Source: Squalus acanthias (taxonomy: Eukaryota). Taken from it: 62,000 nt of DNA. The stretch covers positions 13,702,001 through 13,764,000 of the forward strand of contig CM059432.1 of the NCBI GenBank assembly GCA_030390025.1, in the 5' to 3' direction. The position numbers and the translations under genes were made by a program. Shown here piece by piece: positions 7,616 through 62,000 of the stretch. Numbering within the stretch: position 1 is the stretch's first letter; every line of letters begins with the position of its first letter. The notes beneath the pieces are model-generated. The model worked only from the letters and a program-made list of their open reading frames with translations. It did not search any database and had not been told where the DNA came from.

Positions 7616-7942
<327 letters not shown>

Positions 7943-51978: not shown

Positions 51979-53795
51979 AAGGGTGTCAAACATGCCGAAT
52001 CCGGCCCTTGGTATGTTGCGCTTAGGAATGGGACATGGATCTCCCGGGCGCTGCTTCTAAGCTCCATGTAAACTACGTGCTGCAGCAGCCGCCTGCCATC
52101 CTGCTCAGTTATGTCAGCCCCCATCTCAGGGTTGACTAGAAACGGGACCAGCTGACTGAGGAGTGAGAGAGAGAGAGACGGAGCAGAGAGAAGTGTGGGG
52201 TTGGGTTGGGCTGGGCTGGAAGAGGGTGAAAGGATTAGGGTGAGGAGATTAAGACTGGGGGTGGGGTGGGGGAGAGAGGGAGAGGTTGACAGGAGTCTGG
52301 GGTGTTGGGGGAGATTAGGGCTTGGTTGTGGAGGGTTGGGGGGGGGCGAGACAAAGAGGACTGAGAATGGAGTGGGGTAGGCGTGGGGCCCACCATTTCC
52401 TGCAGAGCCAGGAGCAGCAGCAGCAACCTAGTAACTGGGAACGACGTGAGTGAAACCCGGGGACTTTACTGTGGGTAAACAGTGAAAGATTGTTTCCACT
52501 GGTTGGCCAATAGGGAACAAGGGTATAGAGATTGTGGATTCTCATGCCCTGATTTTACATTGTAAGCTCTAACTGCCACAGTTCATGTCAGGCTAGGAGA
52601 GGAGGGGAGAAGCACACGAAACAGCTGCAATCTGCAGCCCCACTCCCTCGGCTCCTCCAAATCCCCAAAACATCCCCGGGCTTGACACTCCTCGCTTGGA
52701 ATTTCGAAGTTTGTAGCAAGGCCTGAAGCTCATCTTAAATCGGGTCTCAGGCCTCATTTTAATATTAGAGGTGAGCTGTTAGCTTCTGCCATGCCCCAGC
52801 TCTCCAACATTGGGGGGGGGGGGGGATCAGATTTGGGCCTACCTGCATACTTCAGCGATAGCAACGACAGCCCCGGGAATGGCACTATAACTCCACCACA
52901 CCAGCACGAGGAATAAAAGTGCTGCTACTTGGGGATCTCGGAACAGAGTTTGACTTCTAATTTGGCAGCATTATTTCCAGAACATGCGTGTATGGCAGCA
53001 CATATTAAATGTGCAGTTTTCCCATGCCATTTGCTCTGAAATGCACTTAGCAGGAGTGTGTTGTCATGCTGACATTAGAATTTTGCACACATGCAGTGAC
53101 TCAGAATTGGCTTCGGAATTGCAGAGAAAAATCAAATCGGTGTGAAAATTGAGTCTACATGACTGGTGTGAAACCGATGATGAACTGGTCTCACATTGTA
53201 ATGTACTTCAATACACAATATCTTGGCCTCCCTGGAAAGATTCAAGACAAACCATATCTGGTCCTAAAACTACAATATCTGTTTAGTTCCAAAATGTAGA
53301 ATGCAGTAAATTTAGCATTTTGAATATTTTGTCCTTCGTGCCAAAAACATCAGTGGAAACTAGCATGGAGGAAATAGAATACTGTGTCTAACTATGTGAT
53401 GGACATGAATTCAACTCCCTTACACAGTCAAAACTCTTAATTCCTGCCAGATGACTGTTCTTCTCAGCCCGATAAGGCAATCAACACTCAACTGAAATTC
53501 AAATATTCCAAGCACACAGAATCAGACAAAAAGGATACTGTGTTAATTCTAATAACTCTTTCTTTTAAAAATGGCTATTGAGAATGAGACTTCATGTGCA
53601 AAGTTCTTTCCTGAGATAGGAAATTCAAATTAATATATTCAAATGGTAATCCAGGTCTGCAAATCTAAAAAGCAAATTTTAATTATTAATAAAATCCTAA
53701 AATATTCCTAGTTTTAGTAGGAAATTGTACATATGCAAAGGCAGTTGTGCAAACCTATTATTTACAATAAGATACCACTTTAAAGCACGTCTTAC

Positions 53796-53882
53796 CTTTC
53801 TTCCAGTCTGTTTTTCAACCATGTTGCTGTTGCAATCAGAACTTTCAGTCTGTGCTGTTCTGGAAGACCCAGATTTGGGCAT
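53796..53882 (-). CDS. ANKRD12: ANKRD12 first coding exon (exon 2; whole exon 53796-53946 including 64 nt of 5'UTR)
   Basis: Translates MPKSGSSRTAQTESSDCNSNMVEKQTGRK, matching the ANKRD12 N-terminus (MPKSG...SD.DSNMVEK..GRK). 87 coding nt; donor AAG|GTAAGA at 53795; acceptor ttctgttttttcag| at 53947. Confidence 0.95.
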
Positions 53883-53906
53883 TTTACAGCTTTTGTTCCT
53901 TTCTCC

Positions 53907-53939
53907 TCAGCTGCCTGTTTCAGGCAACAATATGGTCAT
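53907..53939 (-). promoter_or_regulatory. Upstream ORF (MTILLPETGS*) in the ANKRD12 5'UTR part of exon 2
   Basis: ATG ACC ATA TTG TTG CCT GAA ACA GGC AGC TGA; A at -3; ends 24 nt before the main ATG and is in the same frame. Confidence 0.65.
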
Positions 53940-55669
53940 CCTTTATCTGAAAAAACAGAAGTAGTAAAATGTATTTTTCATACTGCATTCACAGCCTTAG
54001 AAGTGCAACTGACTTTCTTTAGATTAACTGGTGTCAGACACATGACATCCATCACCATGCTGAAAATGAATGAATCTGAACTATTAACTAGGAAGTTGAC
54101 ATTTGCCTGATATGGAGTGGGCACACCTTCCCTGCAGGGACATATCCCACTTACCGAAGCCCAGTAAATCAAGATGCAGGCTGGCAAGAATCAAACCTTA
54201 GGGACTCCCAAGTATGTTTAGAAATACACCTGTTGTTTAATTGGGTAAAACCAAGCAGCCTAAACAGCACTGAGCACTGGTAAGGTTCTCACAACTTGTT
54301 TAACTAGACCACCCCATCCATTAGGCTGCTGATTTACAAGATTGTCTGGAGCAGAGTAGGAAGAATTCTAGCTCCCAGTGACAGGTCTAACCCTCAAGAT
54401 CCAAATGAACTACATCAGCTAGTCAATTATCAAATGTGCCTAGAGCACAGAAGACTGGGCTGGCTCAGGTATTAATTATTGAGTGTACCACAACAGATCA
54501 ATCTGGTTCCAATCTCCCTTTACCAGGCTCCAACTTGACCTTACTTACCATCTTCCTCCACCCCTCCCAAGCAGGAAAGTCATTATGACCCTTTATACTT
54601 TTTGCTACAAATCCACCTTAGTGCTTGGTCTTCTATCTCTCAGTCTTAAAGAAGGAGCCCTGTTTGGACATGCACTTGGATGTCACAAGCTTAATTCTGC
54701 AATGGGACTCGAGTCATTGAAGAGAAACATGAGCGGAGCATCCCTCTCCCTTGCTGAGTGCTGTCCTGAAGAACTGTGTCCAATCCAAACTTGGCATCCA
54801 CCAGAACCATCAATTACAGATATGAATCCTGAGCCCAAGCTACCTGATACTTTAAACAGTTGCCTCCTCAGGTACTGTCCATTTCCCTTTCAAAACCGTC
54901 ATTACCACCGCATCTTCAACCCACCCCCCCACACCTTTATTGCCCCATCTCCAATGCCCTTAAACGCGCCATCTCCTCCCAGATTTTTGCCCCTTCCACA
55001 GCACCAAAATGCCACTAACCAAAGTCACAAATGGCATTTTCTGTGACCAACACTTAGAATATCTTAAAGTGGCCCAAATGGTTGGGATATCCCAGCTTAC
55101 TTTGCTCCAGCATTTTGGCTCGAGAGTGAATATGGAGAAAATGCTGAAGTTTCAAAACTATAAGGGACTGGCTAGGAGACCCACAACCCAACATGCAAGG
55201 CCCCATTGTGGACTGGTCATGATAACATGTAAAGAACCAGACATTTACAGATGAGAGAGAATAACAATTAAGATGTTGCGTAAACAGCTCAGCTTAGCAG
55301 GATACTGAGTAGATGCAGCGCAAGGTAGCGGAATAGTATAAGGGTAGAACTTGGCCTCTCCAAAAGATAGTGTACTCTCGTGGACAGTCTGAAGTCTTTT
55401 CACTTTAACGGTAGCCCGCAAAAGATTACAAGTCTGATCAGCTTGAACTTCATGGAAGAAACAGGTTGTATTAATTGCTGGTCATTTAATATAATAATGT
55501 AGAACAGTTGTATAAGGACAATACTGTTATTAGTCAATGTATTTTAAAGCTTCTTGTTTAAAACCACTCGGTCCTGAATCACGCGGAGCTTATTGTTGCA
55601 GGACTAACAACCCTTTGCTGTGACTGTAACCATGGGAAATCTGCCAAAAAACACCGTTGCACATTATCC

Positions 55670-56460
55670 CTCATTCGCCTGACCTCTATCCAACTTTTGA
55701 CATAATTAACCACATCTCCAATGGCTCTCCTCCATTGTTCAGCTTGTTCCCCATCTTAGCTATCTGATAGTAGCCAGAGCACCTCTATCAATGGATTTTC
55801 TTCCCATCCTTGCACTATCACCTTGGAAGTCCTTCAAGGATCTTTCCTTTACGCCCTCATCTACATGGTGACATCATTCGCAAACATTAGACTAAGCCTC
55901 CACACGTAAACTGATGATGCCCACCTCTATCCCTCTCAACTCCTTCACTGCCTGTGCTGTTAGACGGTTTGTCCAATATCCAGTCTTGGTTGAGCCATAA
56001 ATTTCTCCAGCTAAACATTAGGAAGACCAAAGCCATTGTCTTCGGCCCCCACCACAAACTCAATCCCCTTACCCAGACACTCGGAGGCTCAACCCAAGTG
56101 TTTGTAACCTCTGCGTCCTATTCGACCCCAAGCAGAGCTTCTGACCCCATAACCTCTTACCACAAAGTCTGTCCAACTCAGCTTATTTGCTGTTGAAAAC
56201 CTTAAATATGCCTTAGTCACCCCACAGACTTGCTTATTCCAATGGTCTCCTGGCCAGCCTCCCATCCTCCACCCTCTAAATTTCAGCTCAGCAAAACTCT
56301 GCTGCCAGTATCCTATCCCACACCAAGTGCCGCTTACCCATCACCTTTATCCTTGCTGACGTATTTTGGCTCCTGGTCCTCCAACACCTCAATTTAAAAT
56401 TCTCATTCTTGTGTCTAAAGGCCTACATGGCTTCACCCTGTCCTATCTTAACCCTTACAA
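55670..56460 (+). mobile_element. Decayed L2 LINE
   Basis: LSNIQSWL.H.FLQLNI.KTKAIVFGP; similar to 22657-23333 and 25530-26880. Confidence 0.75.
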
Positions 56461-56819
56461 ACACCTAACCTGCAAATAAACTAGCATTTGCAATCAAGAT
56501 ATGAAGTTCCTGATTAGCTGCACACCAACCCTTGCACCCTCTTAAGCTTTCTCTTGTACTCCCTTCCCTTCCTCCACACAATTATTCTGCTTTTAATATT
56601 AGCACAGTTTGTTTGAACATGTTGGATAACAAACAAACCAGTTACTTTATGCACAAAATAAAGTATATTTTGGAAAACAAATGACGGTGCCACATTGTAG
56701 ACACATTTATTGACATTATGGTTTGACAAAACACTGAAAAACTGCGTATTCATGCCATATTAATGCCATTGCTGTTTATACACACTATAAGAGCAATTAA
56801 GCTGACAGTAGGAGAAACG

Positions 56820-56947
56820 TGATGCGGAGATGCCGGTGTTGGACTGGGGTGGACAAAAGTGAGAAGTCGCACAACACCAGGTTATAGTCCAACAGTTTTA
56901 TTTGAAATCACAAGCTTTCGGAGCGCTGCTCCTTCGTCAGGTGAAGT
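56820..56947 (-). mobile_element. Penelope-type pseudo-LTR fragment carrying a hammerhead ribozyme and AATAAA
   Basis: Minus strand: ttcacCTGACGAaggagcagcgctccGAAAgcttgtgatttcAAATAAAactgttggac...gtccaacaccggcatctcc. Confidence 0.75.
56908..56944 (-). ncRNA. Minimal type I hammerhead ribozyme
   Basis: Stem I UCAC/GUGA; core CUGACGA; stem II GGAGC-AGC-GCUCC; GAAA; palindromic mini stem III (AAGCUU); cleavage position after CUU. Confidence 0.75.
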
Positions 56948-57354
56948 AAAGGAATACAAATCGACAAAGCATATATAGATAGAAAACAATGCATGTGTAG
57001 CGTACAATGGCAGATGACTACATTTAATCCTCCTGACTGCCTTTTTGTCACGCCTCGGCAGAGAAACAATCAGGTCAGCCAGGAAGGCACCACATCAAAG
57101 ACATAGCAAGATACAACTGAGACAATGAGGTGGGGTTACAGGGGGTCTAATGTAGGAGAAACAGCATTCTTGGGATACCACAGAAATTAATTTATGCTCA
57201 GCCACTGTAGGTGTGCAGCTAATCAGGAACTTCATATCTTGATTGCAAATGCTAGTTTATTTGCAGGTTAGGTGCCACCCAAAAATAAACAACTGCCAAT
57301 CCAAACAGTTTATGTATCTAAGATGGGTAGGAAAGTCCCCCAGTTATACAACTA

Positions 57355-59187
57355 TAGAAAGAATCATTAAAGGAAAGGAATTCTTGGCAAGTAAAATCAA
57401 GTAAACCCAAAGATGTTTTATAAATATATTAAGAGTAAGAGGATAACTAAAGAAAGGGTAGGGCCGATTAGAGATCATGAGGGTAATCTGTGTGTGGAGG
57501 CGGGAGACGTCGGTAGGATTCTTAATGAATACTTTGCATCTGTTTTCACAAAGGAGAGGGGCGAAGCAGACATTGCCATCAGGGAGGAGGAGTGTGAAAT
57601 ATTAGATGAAATAAACAGTGAGAGAGGAAGTATTAAGGGGTTTAGCAGCTTTAAAAGTGGATAAATCCCCAGGCCTGGATGAAATGTATCCCAGGCTGTT
57701 AAGCGAAGCAAAAGAGGAAATAGCAGAGGCCCTGACCATCATTTTCCAATCCTCTCTGGCTTCAGGTGTGGTGCCGGAGGACTGCTAATGTGGTACCCTT
57801 GTTTAAAAAGGGAGAAAAGGATAGACCGAATAATTACAGGCCAGTCAGCCTACCCTCGGTGGTGGGAAAATTATTGGAAAGAATTCTGAAGGACAGGATA
57901 AATCTTCATTTAGAAAGACACGGATTAATCAAGGATAGTCAGCACGGATTTGTTAAGGGAAGGTCGTGTCTGACAAACTTGATTGAATTTTTTGAGGAGG
58001 TAACAAGGAGGGTAGATGAGGGTAGTGCGTTTGATGTAGTGTATATGGACTTTAGCAAGGCTTTTGATAAGGTTCCACATGGCAGACTGGTCACGAAGTT
58101 AAAAGCCCATGGGATCCAGGACAAAGTGTCAAGTTGAATTTAAAACTGGCTCGGAGGCAGGAAGCAGAGGGTAATGGCTGATGGGTGTTTTGTGACTGGA
58201 AGGCTGTTTCCAGTGGGGTTCTGCAGGGCTCAGTGCTAGGTCCCTTGCTTTTTGTGGTATATATCAATGATCTAGACTTAATATAGGGGGTATGATTAAG
58301 AAGTTTGCAGATGATACTAAAATCGGCTGTGTGGTTGATACTGAAGAAGGAAGCTGTAGACTGCAGGAAGATATCAATAAATTGGTCAGGTGGGTAGAAC
58401 AGTGGCAAATGGAATTCAATCTGGAGAAGTGTGAGGTAATGCATTTGGGGAGGGCTAACAAGGAAAGGGAATACACATTAAATGGTAGGACACAGTAGTG
58501 TAGAGGAACAAAGGAACTTTGGAGTGCATGTCCACAGGTCCCTGAAGGTAGCAGGCCAGGGAGATAAGGTGGTTAAGAAGGCATACGGAATGCTTGTCTT
58601 TATTAGCCGTGGCATAGAATACAAGAGCAGGGGGGTTATGCTTCAACTGTATAAAACACTAGTTAGGCCTCAGCTAGAGTAGTGCGTGCAGTTCTGGTCA
58701 CCACATTACAGGAAAGATGCGAGGAGATTTACAAGGATATTGCTGGGAGTAGAGAATCTTAGCTATGAGGAAAGACTGGATAGGTTGGGTTTGTTTTCCT
58801 TGGAGCAGAGGAGGCTGAGGGGAGACCTTATTGAGGTGTATAAAATGGTGAGGGGCCTAGATAAAGTGGATAGAAAGGACCTATTTCCCTTAGCAGAGGG
58901 GTCAAAAACCAGGGGGCACAGATTTGAAGTAATTGGTGGAAGGTTTAGAGGGGATTTGAGGGGAAATTTCTTCACCCAGAGGGTTGTGGGGGTCTGGAAC
59001 TCACTGCCTGAAAGGGTGGTAGAGGCAGAAACCCTAACCACATTTAAAAAGTGCACTTGGGATTCTGTAACCTGCAGGGCTACGGACCAAGAGCTGGGAA
59101 GTGGGATTAGGCTGGCTAGCTCTTTGTTGGCCGGCGTGGACATGGGCCAAAATGGCCTCCTTCCGTGCTGTAACTTTCTATGATTCT
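57355..59187 (+). mobile_element. CR1 LINE, 5'-truncated, frameshifted
   Basis: ORFs 57413-57664, 57766-58137, 58292-58498 (KFADD), 58482-58682 and 58686-59183; tail ttctatgattcta. Confidence 0.95.
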
Positions 59188-59194
59188 AAGAAAC

Positions 59195-59620
59195 AGCTTG
59201 TATTTATCACAGCCTCAGGTTATCCCAAAGCACTTTCCAGCCAATGAAGTACTTCTGAAGTGTAGTCACTGCTGTAATGAAACGTGACAGCCAATTTTCG
59301 CACAGCAGGGTCCCACAAACAGCAATGAGATACATGAGCAGAAAATTTTATATTTGTGATGTTGATTGAGGGATAAATATTAGCCAGGACACTGGGAGAA
59401 CTCCCCCTGCTCTTCTTTGGATAGTGCTGTAGGATCTTTCACATCCACCTGAGAGGACAGACAGGTCCTCGGTTTAATATCTCATCCGAAAGACGGCACC
59501 TCCGACAGTGTAGCACTCTTTCAGTACTGCACTGGAGTGTCAGCCTCTGGAGTGGCACTTAAACCCACAACCATCAGACTCAGAGGAAAGAGTGCTACCC
59601 ACTGAGCCAAAGCTGGCACT
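59195..59620 (-). mobile_element. Near full-length Deu-type SINE
   Basis: Colinear with 43165-43628. Confidence 0.8.
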
Positions 59621-60950
59621 ACTGTACTTAAATAAAACTTTCATTGTGGGTTATGAAAGAGAACCCAAATGACAAAATGAGTTACACATAGTTGAACACC
59701 TCTCATTCCCACAGTACATTAATATACTGAATAATTGAGGGAAAGATAAAGGGCGCCTAAAAATACACTGCAACAGACATTGAAAATGGCAATACGAGGC
59801 TTCAAGGACAAAATCTATAAGGTCATTCGTCCAGTCAGCTCCCTTCAAGAACTTAAAGCAAATATAATGATAGTTTCTTAGTAGATTCCAGCAAACACAA
59901 TTAGGAAGGATTAAACACCATTGCAAAATAAGTCCTATTAAACCTTTAGTATGGCTGCAGTATGTATATATTGCATAGCATACCATAGCACTGGCTGCAA
60001 TGCAAATTTAAATATGCAATCACAACTTTCATGTATGGTCATGGACCTTTCAAAATGTCTGGGGAACTACATTGCTGGTGGGCCACAGCCAGAAAAAACA
60101 TTGGACGTTACTGTTGGCTGGACTGCTGGAGAATACATATGTGGCACAATGGTGTAAGTAAACATGCTGAAAAGTCTTCAATTATTTACAGGTGAAGTTT
60201 TTATTTTAATAGCTTCCATCAAAGGCTGATTTCAGTTCAGATTTCATATACCAATTACTTTCTTTTATTATGCTGTTAGGTAGGGAGTTCTAGGATTTTG
60301 ACCCAGTGAAGATTAAGGAACAGCGATATATATTTCTTTGCAACAAACTTCTTGGTTTCTGTTCATCCAGACTCTAGAATGTCTTTGCATTAAGTATATT
60401 TTCCCGTTCCTTGTTTTTCCTCCAACATGCATTACCTGATACCTATTAACATCAAAACGCATCTTTCATCTGTTCGCCCATTTCATTACTTGCTCACTGA
60501 AATGTTTCCGCAGATTAGTTTTGAATTTACTCCCTTCAAGCGCAGGCTGTGTCCTCTGGTTCTACTGTTCTGAACAAGGTGAAACAGCTGGTCATGGTTT
60601 ACATTATCTAGTCGCTTTAGAATCTAAAAACAGCCATCATATCATCTCTTAACAATCTCTTTTCCAGTGAGATGTCGTCCAATTTATTGCCCTAATACAA
60701 TCTCCTCCATCATTCTGCTTGTTCTCTTCTGTATCCTTTCAATAGCTACAATATTCTTTTTGTACCTGTGGCAACACACTATTCCAAGTGTCGTCGCACT
60801 ATTGATTTATAAAGTGGCAGGACTACCTCACTATTTCAGCTCAATAGTGACCTTTTAATATATCCCAACATCTGATTTGCTTATGACACATGCTTCTTCC
60901 TCCATAAGGAATTACCAATGATATTAAGCAAGGAAAGGATGCAAACATCA

Positions 60951-62000
60951 TCATGGAATCATAGAATCGTATAGCACAAAAGGTGGCTATTTTGCCCATA
61001 GTGCCTGTGCCAGCTCTTCAAAAGAGCTATCCAATTAGTCCCGTGCCCTTGCTCTTTCCCGAGAGCTCTGCATATTTTTCCTCCGAGTATCTATCCAATT
61101 CTGATTCAATATTGAATCTGCTGCCACCATCCTTTCAGGCAGTGGATTCCAGATCATAATAACTCACCTAATCACCCCTCTGGTTCTTTTGCCAATTACT
61201 TTAAATCTGTGTCTTCTGGTAACTGACCCTCCTCCCCTTAACTTTCTCTGCTCTAAAGAGAACAATCCCAGCTTCTCTAGTCTCTCCACATAACTGAAGT
61301 CCCTCATTCCTGGTACCATTCTAATAAATCTCCTCTTCAAGCATTCCAAAGTGTTTACCTATTTCCTAAAGCGTGGTGCCCAGTACTCCAGCTGAGGCCT
61401 AACCAGCGATTTATAAAGGCTTAGCATACTTTCCTTGATTTTGTACTCTATGCCTCTATTTATAAAGCCCAGGATCCCATATGCTTTTTTAACAGCATCA
61501 ACTTGTCCTGCGACCTTCAAAGATTTGTGTATGTGAACCCCCAGGTCTCTCTGTTCCTGAAATTCCTTTATTTAGTTTATATTGCCTATCCTAATTCTTC
61601 CTTCCAAAATGAATCACGATACACGTCTCTGCGTTAAATTTCATCTACCATGTGTCTGTCCATTTCACCAATCTACCCATGTCGTCATGAAGTCTGCTAC
61701 TATCCATCTCGCTGTCTGCTACAATGTCTGAGCTTTGTGTCCTCTTCAAACTTTGAAATTATGCCCATCATACCTAAAGAGCAGTGGTCCTAATACCGAC
61801 CCCTGGGGGACACCACTGTACACTTTCCTCTAGTCTGAAAAACACTACTCCCTGCTTTCTGCGCCATAGTCAATTATGTATCCTCGCAGCCACTGCCCTT
61901 TCAATCCCATGGGCTTTAATTTTGCAAACAAGTCTATTATGTGGACCTTATCAAAACATCTTTTGAAAGTCCATATACACAACACCAACCACACTACCCT
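60951..62000 (-). mobile_element. CR1 LINE 3' portion running off the window end
   Basis: catggaatcatagaatc tail; ORF 61349-61164; ccttatcaaaacatcttttgaaagtccatatacac (VYMDFQK.FDK). Confidence 0.9.

Follow-up and report, generated by a model that had tools for sequence, protein, structure and literature searches.

A recent, 5'-truncated Penelope-like insertion carrying a minimal hammerhead ribozyme in an intron of the presumed ANKRD12 gene of Squalus acanthias, most likely inert for its host gene

The minimal hammerhead ribozymes (min-HHRs) of metazoan Penelope-like elements reside in the repeats (pLTRs) of these elements and are of type I, with a helix I of 4 bp, an extra nucleotide separating positions 9 and 10.1, a closing G10.1-C11.1 pair and palindromic positions 15.2/16.2; as monomers they showed no cleavage in vitro, and as dimers they cleaved to a low extent (Cervera and De la Pena 2014, PMC4209133). 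In the portion of that paper considered here no cartilaginous fish appears; its supplement may list examples. The ribozyme of an element of Anolis cuts only together with the element's protein, the cutting is dispensable for insertion, and no RNA-seq reads end at the cut site (Frangieh et al. 2024, PMC11167929). As for the coding part of such elements, Neptune and Nematis have a CX2-5CXXC linker between their reverse transcriptase (RT) and endonuclease (EN) domains (Craig et al. 2021, PMC8557442), and non-LTR retrozymes are defined as two or more hammerhead-bearing units in tandem that lack coding capacity (10.64898/2026.07.22.740005). In the literature covered (subscription papers, Repbase/Dfam and supplements lying outside its scope), we found no paper on the family described below, on hammerheads of shark Penelope elements or on a transposon in intron 1 of ANKRD12.

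How does a hammerhead in a shark intron compare with these systems? The motif considered here lies on the minus strand of a 62,000-nt stretch of Squalus acanthias DNA (the window), within a gene that we take to be ANKRD12 on the basis of known ANKRD12 motifs and an ankyrin match, the ankyrin-coding exon being at 7616-7942 on the minus strand. A preliminary description had reported a complete hammerhead core with paired stems I and II on this strand, a cut near 56912, and AATAAA at 56902-56897 followed by a GU-rich tract 3' of the hammerhead, and had likened the motif to the minimal hammerheads of Penelope-like elements; the sequence bears out each of these points (Table 1), the predicted cut agrees, and the motif does sit in a Penelope-like pLTR. 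The CUGANGA and GAAA boxes and the NUH cut site are all present, together with the G10.1-C11.1 closing pair, the extra A and the palindromic 15.2/16.2 positions, and a monomeric helix III is absent. In its type, its 4-bp helix I, its extra nucleotide, its closing pair, its palindrome and its location in a pLTR, the motif is thus the same as the min-HHRs of PMC4209133, from which, as they are described there, it differs by a helix II of 5 bp. A loose hammerhead descriptor returned three candidates in the window, of which that at 56944-56908 is the best and alone has a stem II of 5 bp. Two of the checks named at the outset gave unequal results: the Rfam models gave zero matches anywhere in the window at the gathering score, and no hammerhead model matched between 55500 and 58500 at E<=5, which is expected for minimal forms and is not counter-evidence; the genome-wide count, by contrast, yielded 12,930 exact copies of the 37-nt ribozyme against 0 for the reversed control, so that the hammerhead of the window cannot be put down to chance.

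Table 1. Positions of the insertion, the ribozyme and the neighbouring features in the window
Feature	Position	Strand	Basis
333-bp 5'-truncated end (part of pLTR plus tail) of a Penelope-like element	56819-57151	minus	about 98.5% identity to the pLTR of L032
Target-site duplication, upstream copy, 11 bp; last 2 nt also fit the element	57152-57162	minus	sequence; contig joint of relatives
Target-site duplication, downstream copy, 11 bp	56808-56818	minus	sequence; contig joint of relatives
Optional Penelope tail, about 35-39 nt	56820-56858	minus	copies stop either near 56855 or at 56820
TATA-like box, predicted promoter part, 30 nt upstream of the Inr-like A	56971-56977	minus	spacing kept across subfamilies
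Inr-like motif; predicted RNA start 56947, 7 nt before hammerhead C3	56943-56949	minus	modal 5' end of siblings
Whole minimal type I hammerhead with 4-bp stem I and 5-bp stem II	56908-56944	minus	sequence; descriptor scan
Stem I, 5' strand UCAC	56944-56941	minus	sequence
CUGACGA core box	56940-56934	minus	sequence
Single extra A between 9 and 10.1	56933	minus	sequence
Stem II GGAGC/GCUCC, 5 bp, with 3-nt loop AGC	56932-56920	minus	sequence
GAAA core box	56919-56916	minus	sequence
GC-UU, with an AGCU palindrome in place of helix III	56915-56912	minus	sequence
Predicted cut, after the CUU triplet	56912/56911	minus	sequence
Stem I, 3' strand GUGA	56911-56908	minus	sequence
AATAAA, probably serving the element as its poly(A) signal	56897-56902	minus	kept downstream in 76/79 sampled whole-ribozyme ends (script)
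GU-rich tract	56878-56870	minus	sequence
First coding exon of ANKRD12 (exon 2)	53796-53946	minus	ATG at 53882, acceptor in front

What, then, is the motif a part of? It had been taken for an orphan unit; instead, it belongs to the pLTR end of a young and very abundant Penelope-like element, a 333-bp piece with more than 10^4 siblings that carry an identical ribozyme. One member of the family, L032 (G000:C2:64578000-64587900), is a partial tandem of the form pLTR-ORF-pLTR with direct repeats of 775 bp, and its ORF (7495-4817, minus strand) runs uninterrupted for 892 aa including Met. This frame matches Pfam RVT_1 (E 1.3e-8, above the cut-off) and contains DKG, YIDD, CX4CXXC (residue 751 counted after Met), YIG and RxxxH motifs as well as a Cys/His pattern. 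A single ORF, in which RT is followed by the linker and by a putative GIY-YIG-type region at the C terminus, is what Neptune/Nematis-type endonuclease-positive (EN+) elements also possess, and the family further shares with the elements of PMC8557442 the partial tandems of pLTRs, the inverted 5'-truncated copies and the optional tail of 30-40 nt, all of which were observed. Unlike the reference EN+ elements, however, the putative endonuclease region of L032, for all its YIG and RxxxH motifs, has no Pfam GIY-YIG match at E<=0.01, and the clade is read from motifs. The parent is therefore best described as probably an EN+ Penelope-like element, probably a Neptune, with a linker type that is shared with Nematis. 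The hammerhead is found in both direct repeats of L032 and likewise of L031, the latter a tandem plus inverted array whose frames are frameshifted. In L013 and L015 the unit leads directly into ATG; in these two, as in L032, the ORF start follows the tail, and in full elements the tail's final base also serves as the A of the ATG. A non-LTR retrozyme was considered as well and rejected, as the insertion is a single copy with a target duplication and the end of a coding element.

The window copy is 98.5% identical to the pLTR of L032 over 334 nt, none of the five differences falling inside the ribozyme. Queried with 56800-57100, the genome yielded 1,818 candidates, and the 40 that were scored are 97-100% identical. 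At 29 other loci (97-99% identity) the match stops on the 3' side at 56820, in a few of them some bases beyond; on the 5' side most of these loci extend into a longer common sequence, whereas the window copy breaks off at 57153. Contigs of DNA from relatives pass directly from 56807 to 57152, a skip of 344 nt with 11 letters that fit either side. Because this skip equals the 333-bp insert plus the 11-bp duplication, the site is empty in these relatives, and the insertion is accordingly lineage-restricted; the evidence comes from three of four runs (X20, X21 and X22), belonging to one study and at most two samples, the fourth run having no cover of the flank. The flanks of the relatives differ from the window at 9-12 letters in about 245 (about 95-96% identity). 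The insertion is recent and no conserved host element. It is enclosed by a 68-nt inverted repeat (57207-57274 and 56462-56529) that is 99% complementary; the relatives' contigs skip about 70 nt at its 56462-56529 arm. This repeat was rejected as a MITE, its arm being without any other genomic copy, and looks like a recent local inverted duplication; pairing of its arms in the pre-mRNA would give a long hairpin whose loop contains the ribozyme.

The size of the family was gauged by exact matches over the 3.7-Gb genome, reversed sequences serving as controls. Besides the 37-nt ribozyme, a 19-mer located just 3' of AATAAA and common to several subfamilies has 102,102 copies, and a 19-mer of the tail has 36,461 (reversed control 0 in either case). 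The 12,930 copies of a single ribozyme variant compare with about 4,000 in the coelacanth and 9,000 in Xenopus for all families (PMC4209133); as reported there, the copies are mostly single and dispersed, stemming from truncated elements, with opposed pairs 100-700 bp apart. Variation was examined in a sample built from the first 100 listed match places on contig C1, which yielded 57 loci and 101 ends, three further loci picked as inverted pairs being left out. Among the 79 ends with a whole ribozyme, a script found the core intact in 71, to which two that are intact but mis-parsed have to be added. C-G is replaced by U-A, in a compensatory manner, in stem I of 12 and in stem II of four of these 79, about 20 of the 79 have G-U stem variants, and N7 and loop II vary freely; since the sampled copies are related, these counts do not represent independent events. 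A subfamily in which C replaces U4 (CCGA core) and stem II is compensated contributes five of the 79 (L074, L076, L086, L093 and the clipped L059). The tail is present in 41 of the 101 ends, and a run of at least eight A within 60 nt behind the anchor in none of the 101 sampled genomic copies. Independent-looking Penelope ends with common flanks were also seen, at what seem to be three fixed positions of a CR1/L2-like LINE, comprising five (L057, L061, L066, L084, L087), six (L063, L076, L089, L092, L106, L110) and three (L073, L074, L083) of the 57 loci; these flanks may possibly reflect target hotspots or, alternatively, co-duplication with the LINE.

Where would the RNA of the element begin? 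Across subfamilies the TATA-like box and the Inr-like motif keep a distance of about 25-32 nt and shift together: a TATA at -37 to -40 goes with an Inr at -7 from C3, and in other subfamilies a TATA at about -38 to -44 goes with an Inr at -13/-14. Pen2a_Av of the rotifer Adineta vaga has a putative TATA box and Inr in its pLTR, together with a tail of 31 bp and a target duplication of 9 bp (PMC3846280); the features seen here are alike, and a putative TATA-Inr pair in a Penelope pLTR is thus not new. Penelope of D. virilis, by contrast, uses an internal, TATA-less promoter with an intron (PMC2377424), whereas here the Inr-like site adjoins the ribozyme and no acceptor AG precedes the Inr in the window subfamily. 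The 5' ends of siblings, which were mapped against forward-only references (n=63 truncated or inverted ends), point to the same place: 18 of the 63, from 15 loci, fall 5-13 nt before C3, six of them exactly at -7, and with one end per locus the count is 11 of 39, the interval from -5 to -13 having been picked after viewing the data, so that the enrichment is descriptive. The idea that genomic copies begin at the ribozyme cut was rejected, with 0 of 63 ends located there exactly and two within 4 nt, nor does any of the 101 sampled copies start exactly at this site. The simplest reading of these sequences is that many copies would have been made from uncut RNA starting just before the ribozyme. 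In this respect the family resembles PAc, a Poseidon element of Anolis carolinensis, with which it shares both an apparent template of uncut RNA and two preferred 3' ends bounding the tail (PMC11167929). The two differ in layout, however: in PAc the ORF begins inside the hammerhead and the tail lies within the ORF, whereas here the ATG comes after the tail, 92 nt past the cut, and the ORF has a Neptune-type linker, unlike that of PAc. Finally, the window copy extends 204 nt upstream of the predicted start at 56947, which implies a template produced by read-through or a circular RNA.

The surroundings of the insertion agree with the earlier placement of the hammerhead in sense orientation within an intron before the first coding exon, as judged from both exon placement and contig joints. 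The exon lies 2.87 kb downstream of the insertion. Contigs from all four runs of another set (two studies, the runs being presumed RNA) match 53946-53796 without mismatch and continue on both sides of the exon into sequence absent from 53600-57400; an upstream exon is hence to be placed past 57400, which makes the insert intronic. Of the spliced ANKRD12-type contigs, one is 9,148 nt long and another carries 75 nt upstream of the exon, and the unique flanks of the insertion (56521-56774 and 57156-57400) are without contig cover in the four runs. All this spliced evidence consists of contigs rather than reads; contigs cannot show transcript ends, and the sampled individuals are not necessarily carriers of the insertion. 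The promoter and exon 1 are likely to be found at a CpG island near window-equivalent 149,000-150,200, in which case intron 1 of ANKRD12 would measure about 95 kb. In this island (L118) motifs recur and the plus strand offers a donor-like site; the island may be a bidirectional promoter that serves ANKRD12 and an antisense transcript toward an NDUFV2-like gene, as in human. That gene, which we presume to be such from known motifs, has its last exon on the other side of the island from ANKRD12 exon 2. Two other CpG-rich stretches (L035 and L036; window-equivalent 90,470-91,370 and 91,550-92,270) show apparent inverted ends; that near 90,500 was set aside by eye as a promoter on account of these ends, and the stretches are probably non-autonomous DNA transposons. 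Other hammerhead subfamilies form a head-to-head pair (L034) at window-equivalent 78132-78479 (minus) and 78627-78924 (plus), in what is probably intron 1, and a second such pair occurs at 187576 (plus) and 190027 (minus) in the region of the NDUFV2-like gene.

Would the motif act on the RNA of its host gene? We consider it very probable that the locus represents a recent 5'-truncated end of a Penelope-like element, bearing a standard minimal hammerhead and AATAAA, that is inert for ANKRD12. On this reading, the protein of the element would have nicked the intron, and reverse transcription, starting at the tail end of an RNA containing the pLTR, would have halted after 333 nt. In the parent, the pLTR would provide in turn a promoter (with its TATA at -30 and its start at 56947), the hammerhead and a poly(A) signal, and the hammerhead would cut only as a dimer or with the help of the element's protein. 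The ANKRD12 copy would likely be removed uncut with the spliced intron, because it is a lone monomer that has no stable helix III and is predicted to misfold in stem I. For an RNA running from 56947 to the tail end, stem I is predicted to pair with a probability of 0.95, and with at most 20 upstream nt the value is 0.74-0.99 in 15 of 25 folding windows and <=0.07 in the other 10; with at least 30 upstream nt, it is <=0.10 in 19 of 20 windows and 0.5 in one longer window.

The preliminary description had instead proposed that the unit cuts or prematurely terminates the ANKRD12 pre-mRNA. That a measurable share of this RNA is indeed cut or prematurely polyadenylated, be it by the unit alone or by a dimer formed in trans, perhaps with protein help, seems to us very unlikely, although a small effect is possible. 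The sense orientation speaks for it, as does the fact that the catalytic core, the TATA/Inr pair and the AATAAA, with its GU-rich tract, are all intact in the window copy, with no inactivating change in the sequence; family sequence is plentiful in the contigs of the presumed-RNA runs, the Anolis element does cleave with protein help (PMC11167929), and Xenopus introns are reported to be depleted of related hammerhead repeats, hinting at some cost (10.64898/2026.07.22.740005, preprint). A partner might also be sought in the nearest sense-strand hammerhead, 21 kb upstream at window-equivalent 78261, but that one is opposed by an inverted partner of its own at 78837, and a double hammerhead, with a fold of -19.1 kcal/mol, is weaker than two monomers (-20.0) or a rival cofold (-28.9). 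Besides the predicted misfolding of stem I, it has to be borne in mind that min-HHR monomers were inert in PMC4209133, that sense-strand AATAAA is common in the intron (9 in 53949-62000 and 58 in 7901-62000), that long spliced contigs exist and that the insertion is absent from relatives; moreover, not one of the 101 sampled copies has a run of at least eight A within 60 nt or starts exactly at the cut.

Could the insertion act as a promoter rather than as a ribozyme? A weak alternative ANKRD12 promoter would start RNA at 56947, run through the tail and splice to the exon with the ATG, thereby placing the normal protein under the control of the element. The copy retains 204 nt upstream of the start, TATA and Inr included, six donor-like sites lie between the insertion and exon 2, and a 3' pLTR is capable of driving downstream exons (PMC2377424); however, no contig joint leads from exon 2 into 53949-57400 in the four runs, AATAAA follows 45 nt past the start, and the clipped pLTR has lost its upstream enhancer parts, so that we hold this, too, to be most improbable. 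Equally far-fetched at present is a genome-wide switch, whereby protein and RNA of an expressed element would activate intronic modules in trans and so cut, terminate or re-initiate the transcripts of host genes, including ANKRD12; the pLTR would then be an LTR-like module whose transcribed repeat is the hammerhead itself, with tens of thousands of intact copies, many in sense introns. We give next to no credence to a domesticated ribozyme comparable to HH9/HH10, the conserved intronic hammerheads of amniotes: in its favour are the intronic sense position and the intact core, and against it stand the 98.5% identity to a mobile element, the zero Rfam hammerhead matches and the empty orthologous site between flanks about 95-96% identical, which refutes conservation barring a precise loss in the relatives.

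For ANKRD12 itself, the inert insertion preferred here is of little importance, being yet another copy of an already known retroelement passenger. Taken as a whole, the family is another matter. Its 5' ends at the predicted RNA start, and not at the cut, provide genomic support for a template of uncut RNA, as was obtained in vitro for the Anolis element. Being young, and with an open full-length ORF (L032), about 10^4-10^5 ends and pairs of insertion and empty alleles in close relatives, it may serve as a test bed on which two questions would become testable. Do the hammerheads of Penelope elements cut in vivo, and is there selection against those copies that lie in sense orientation in introns?
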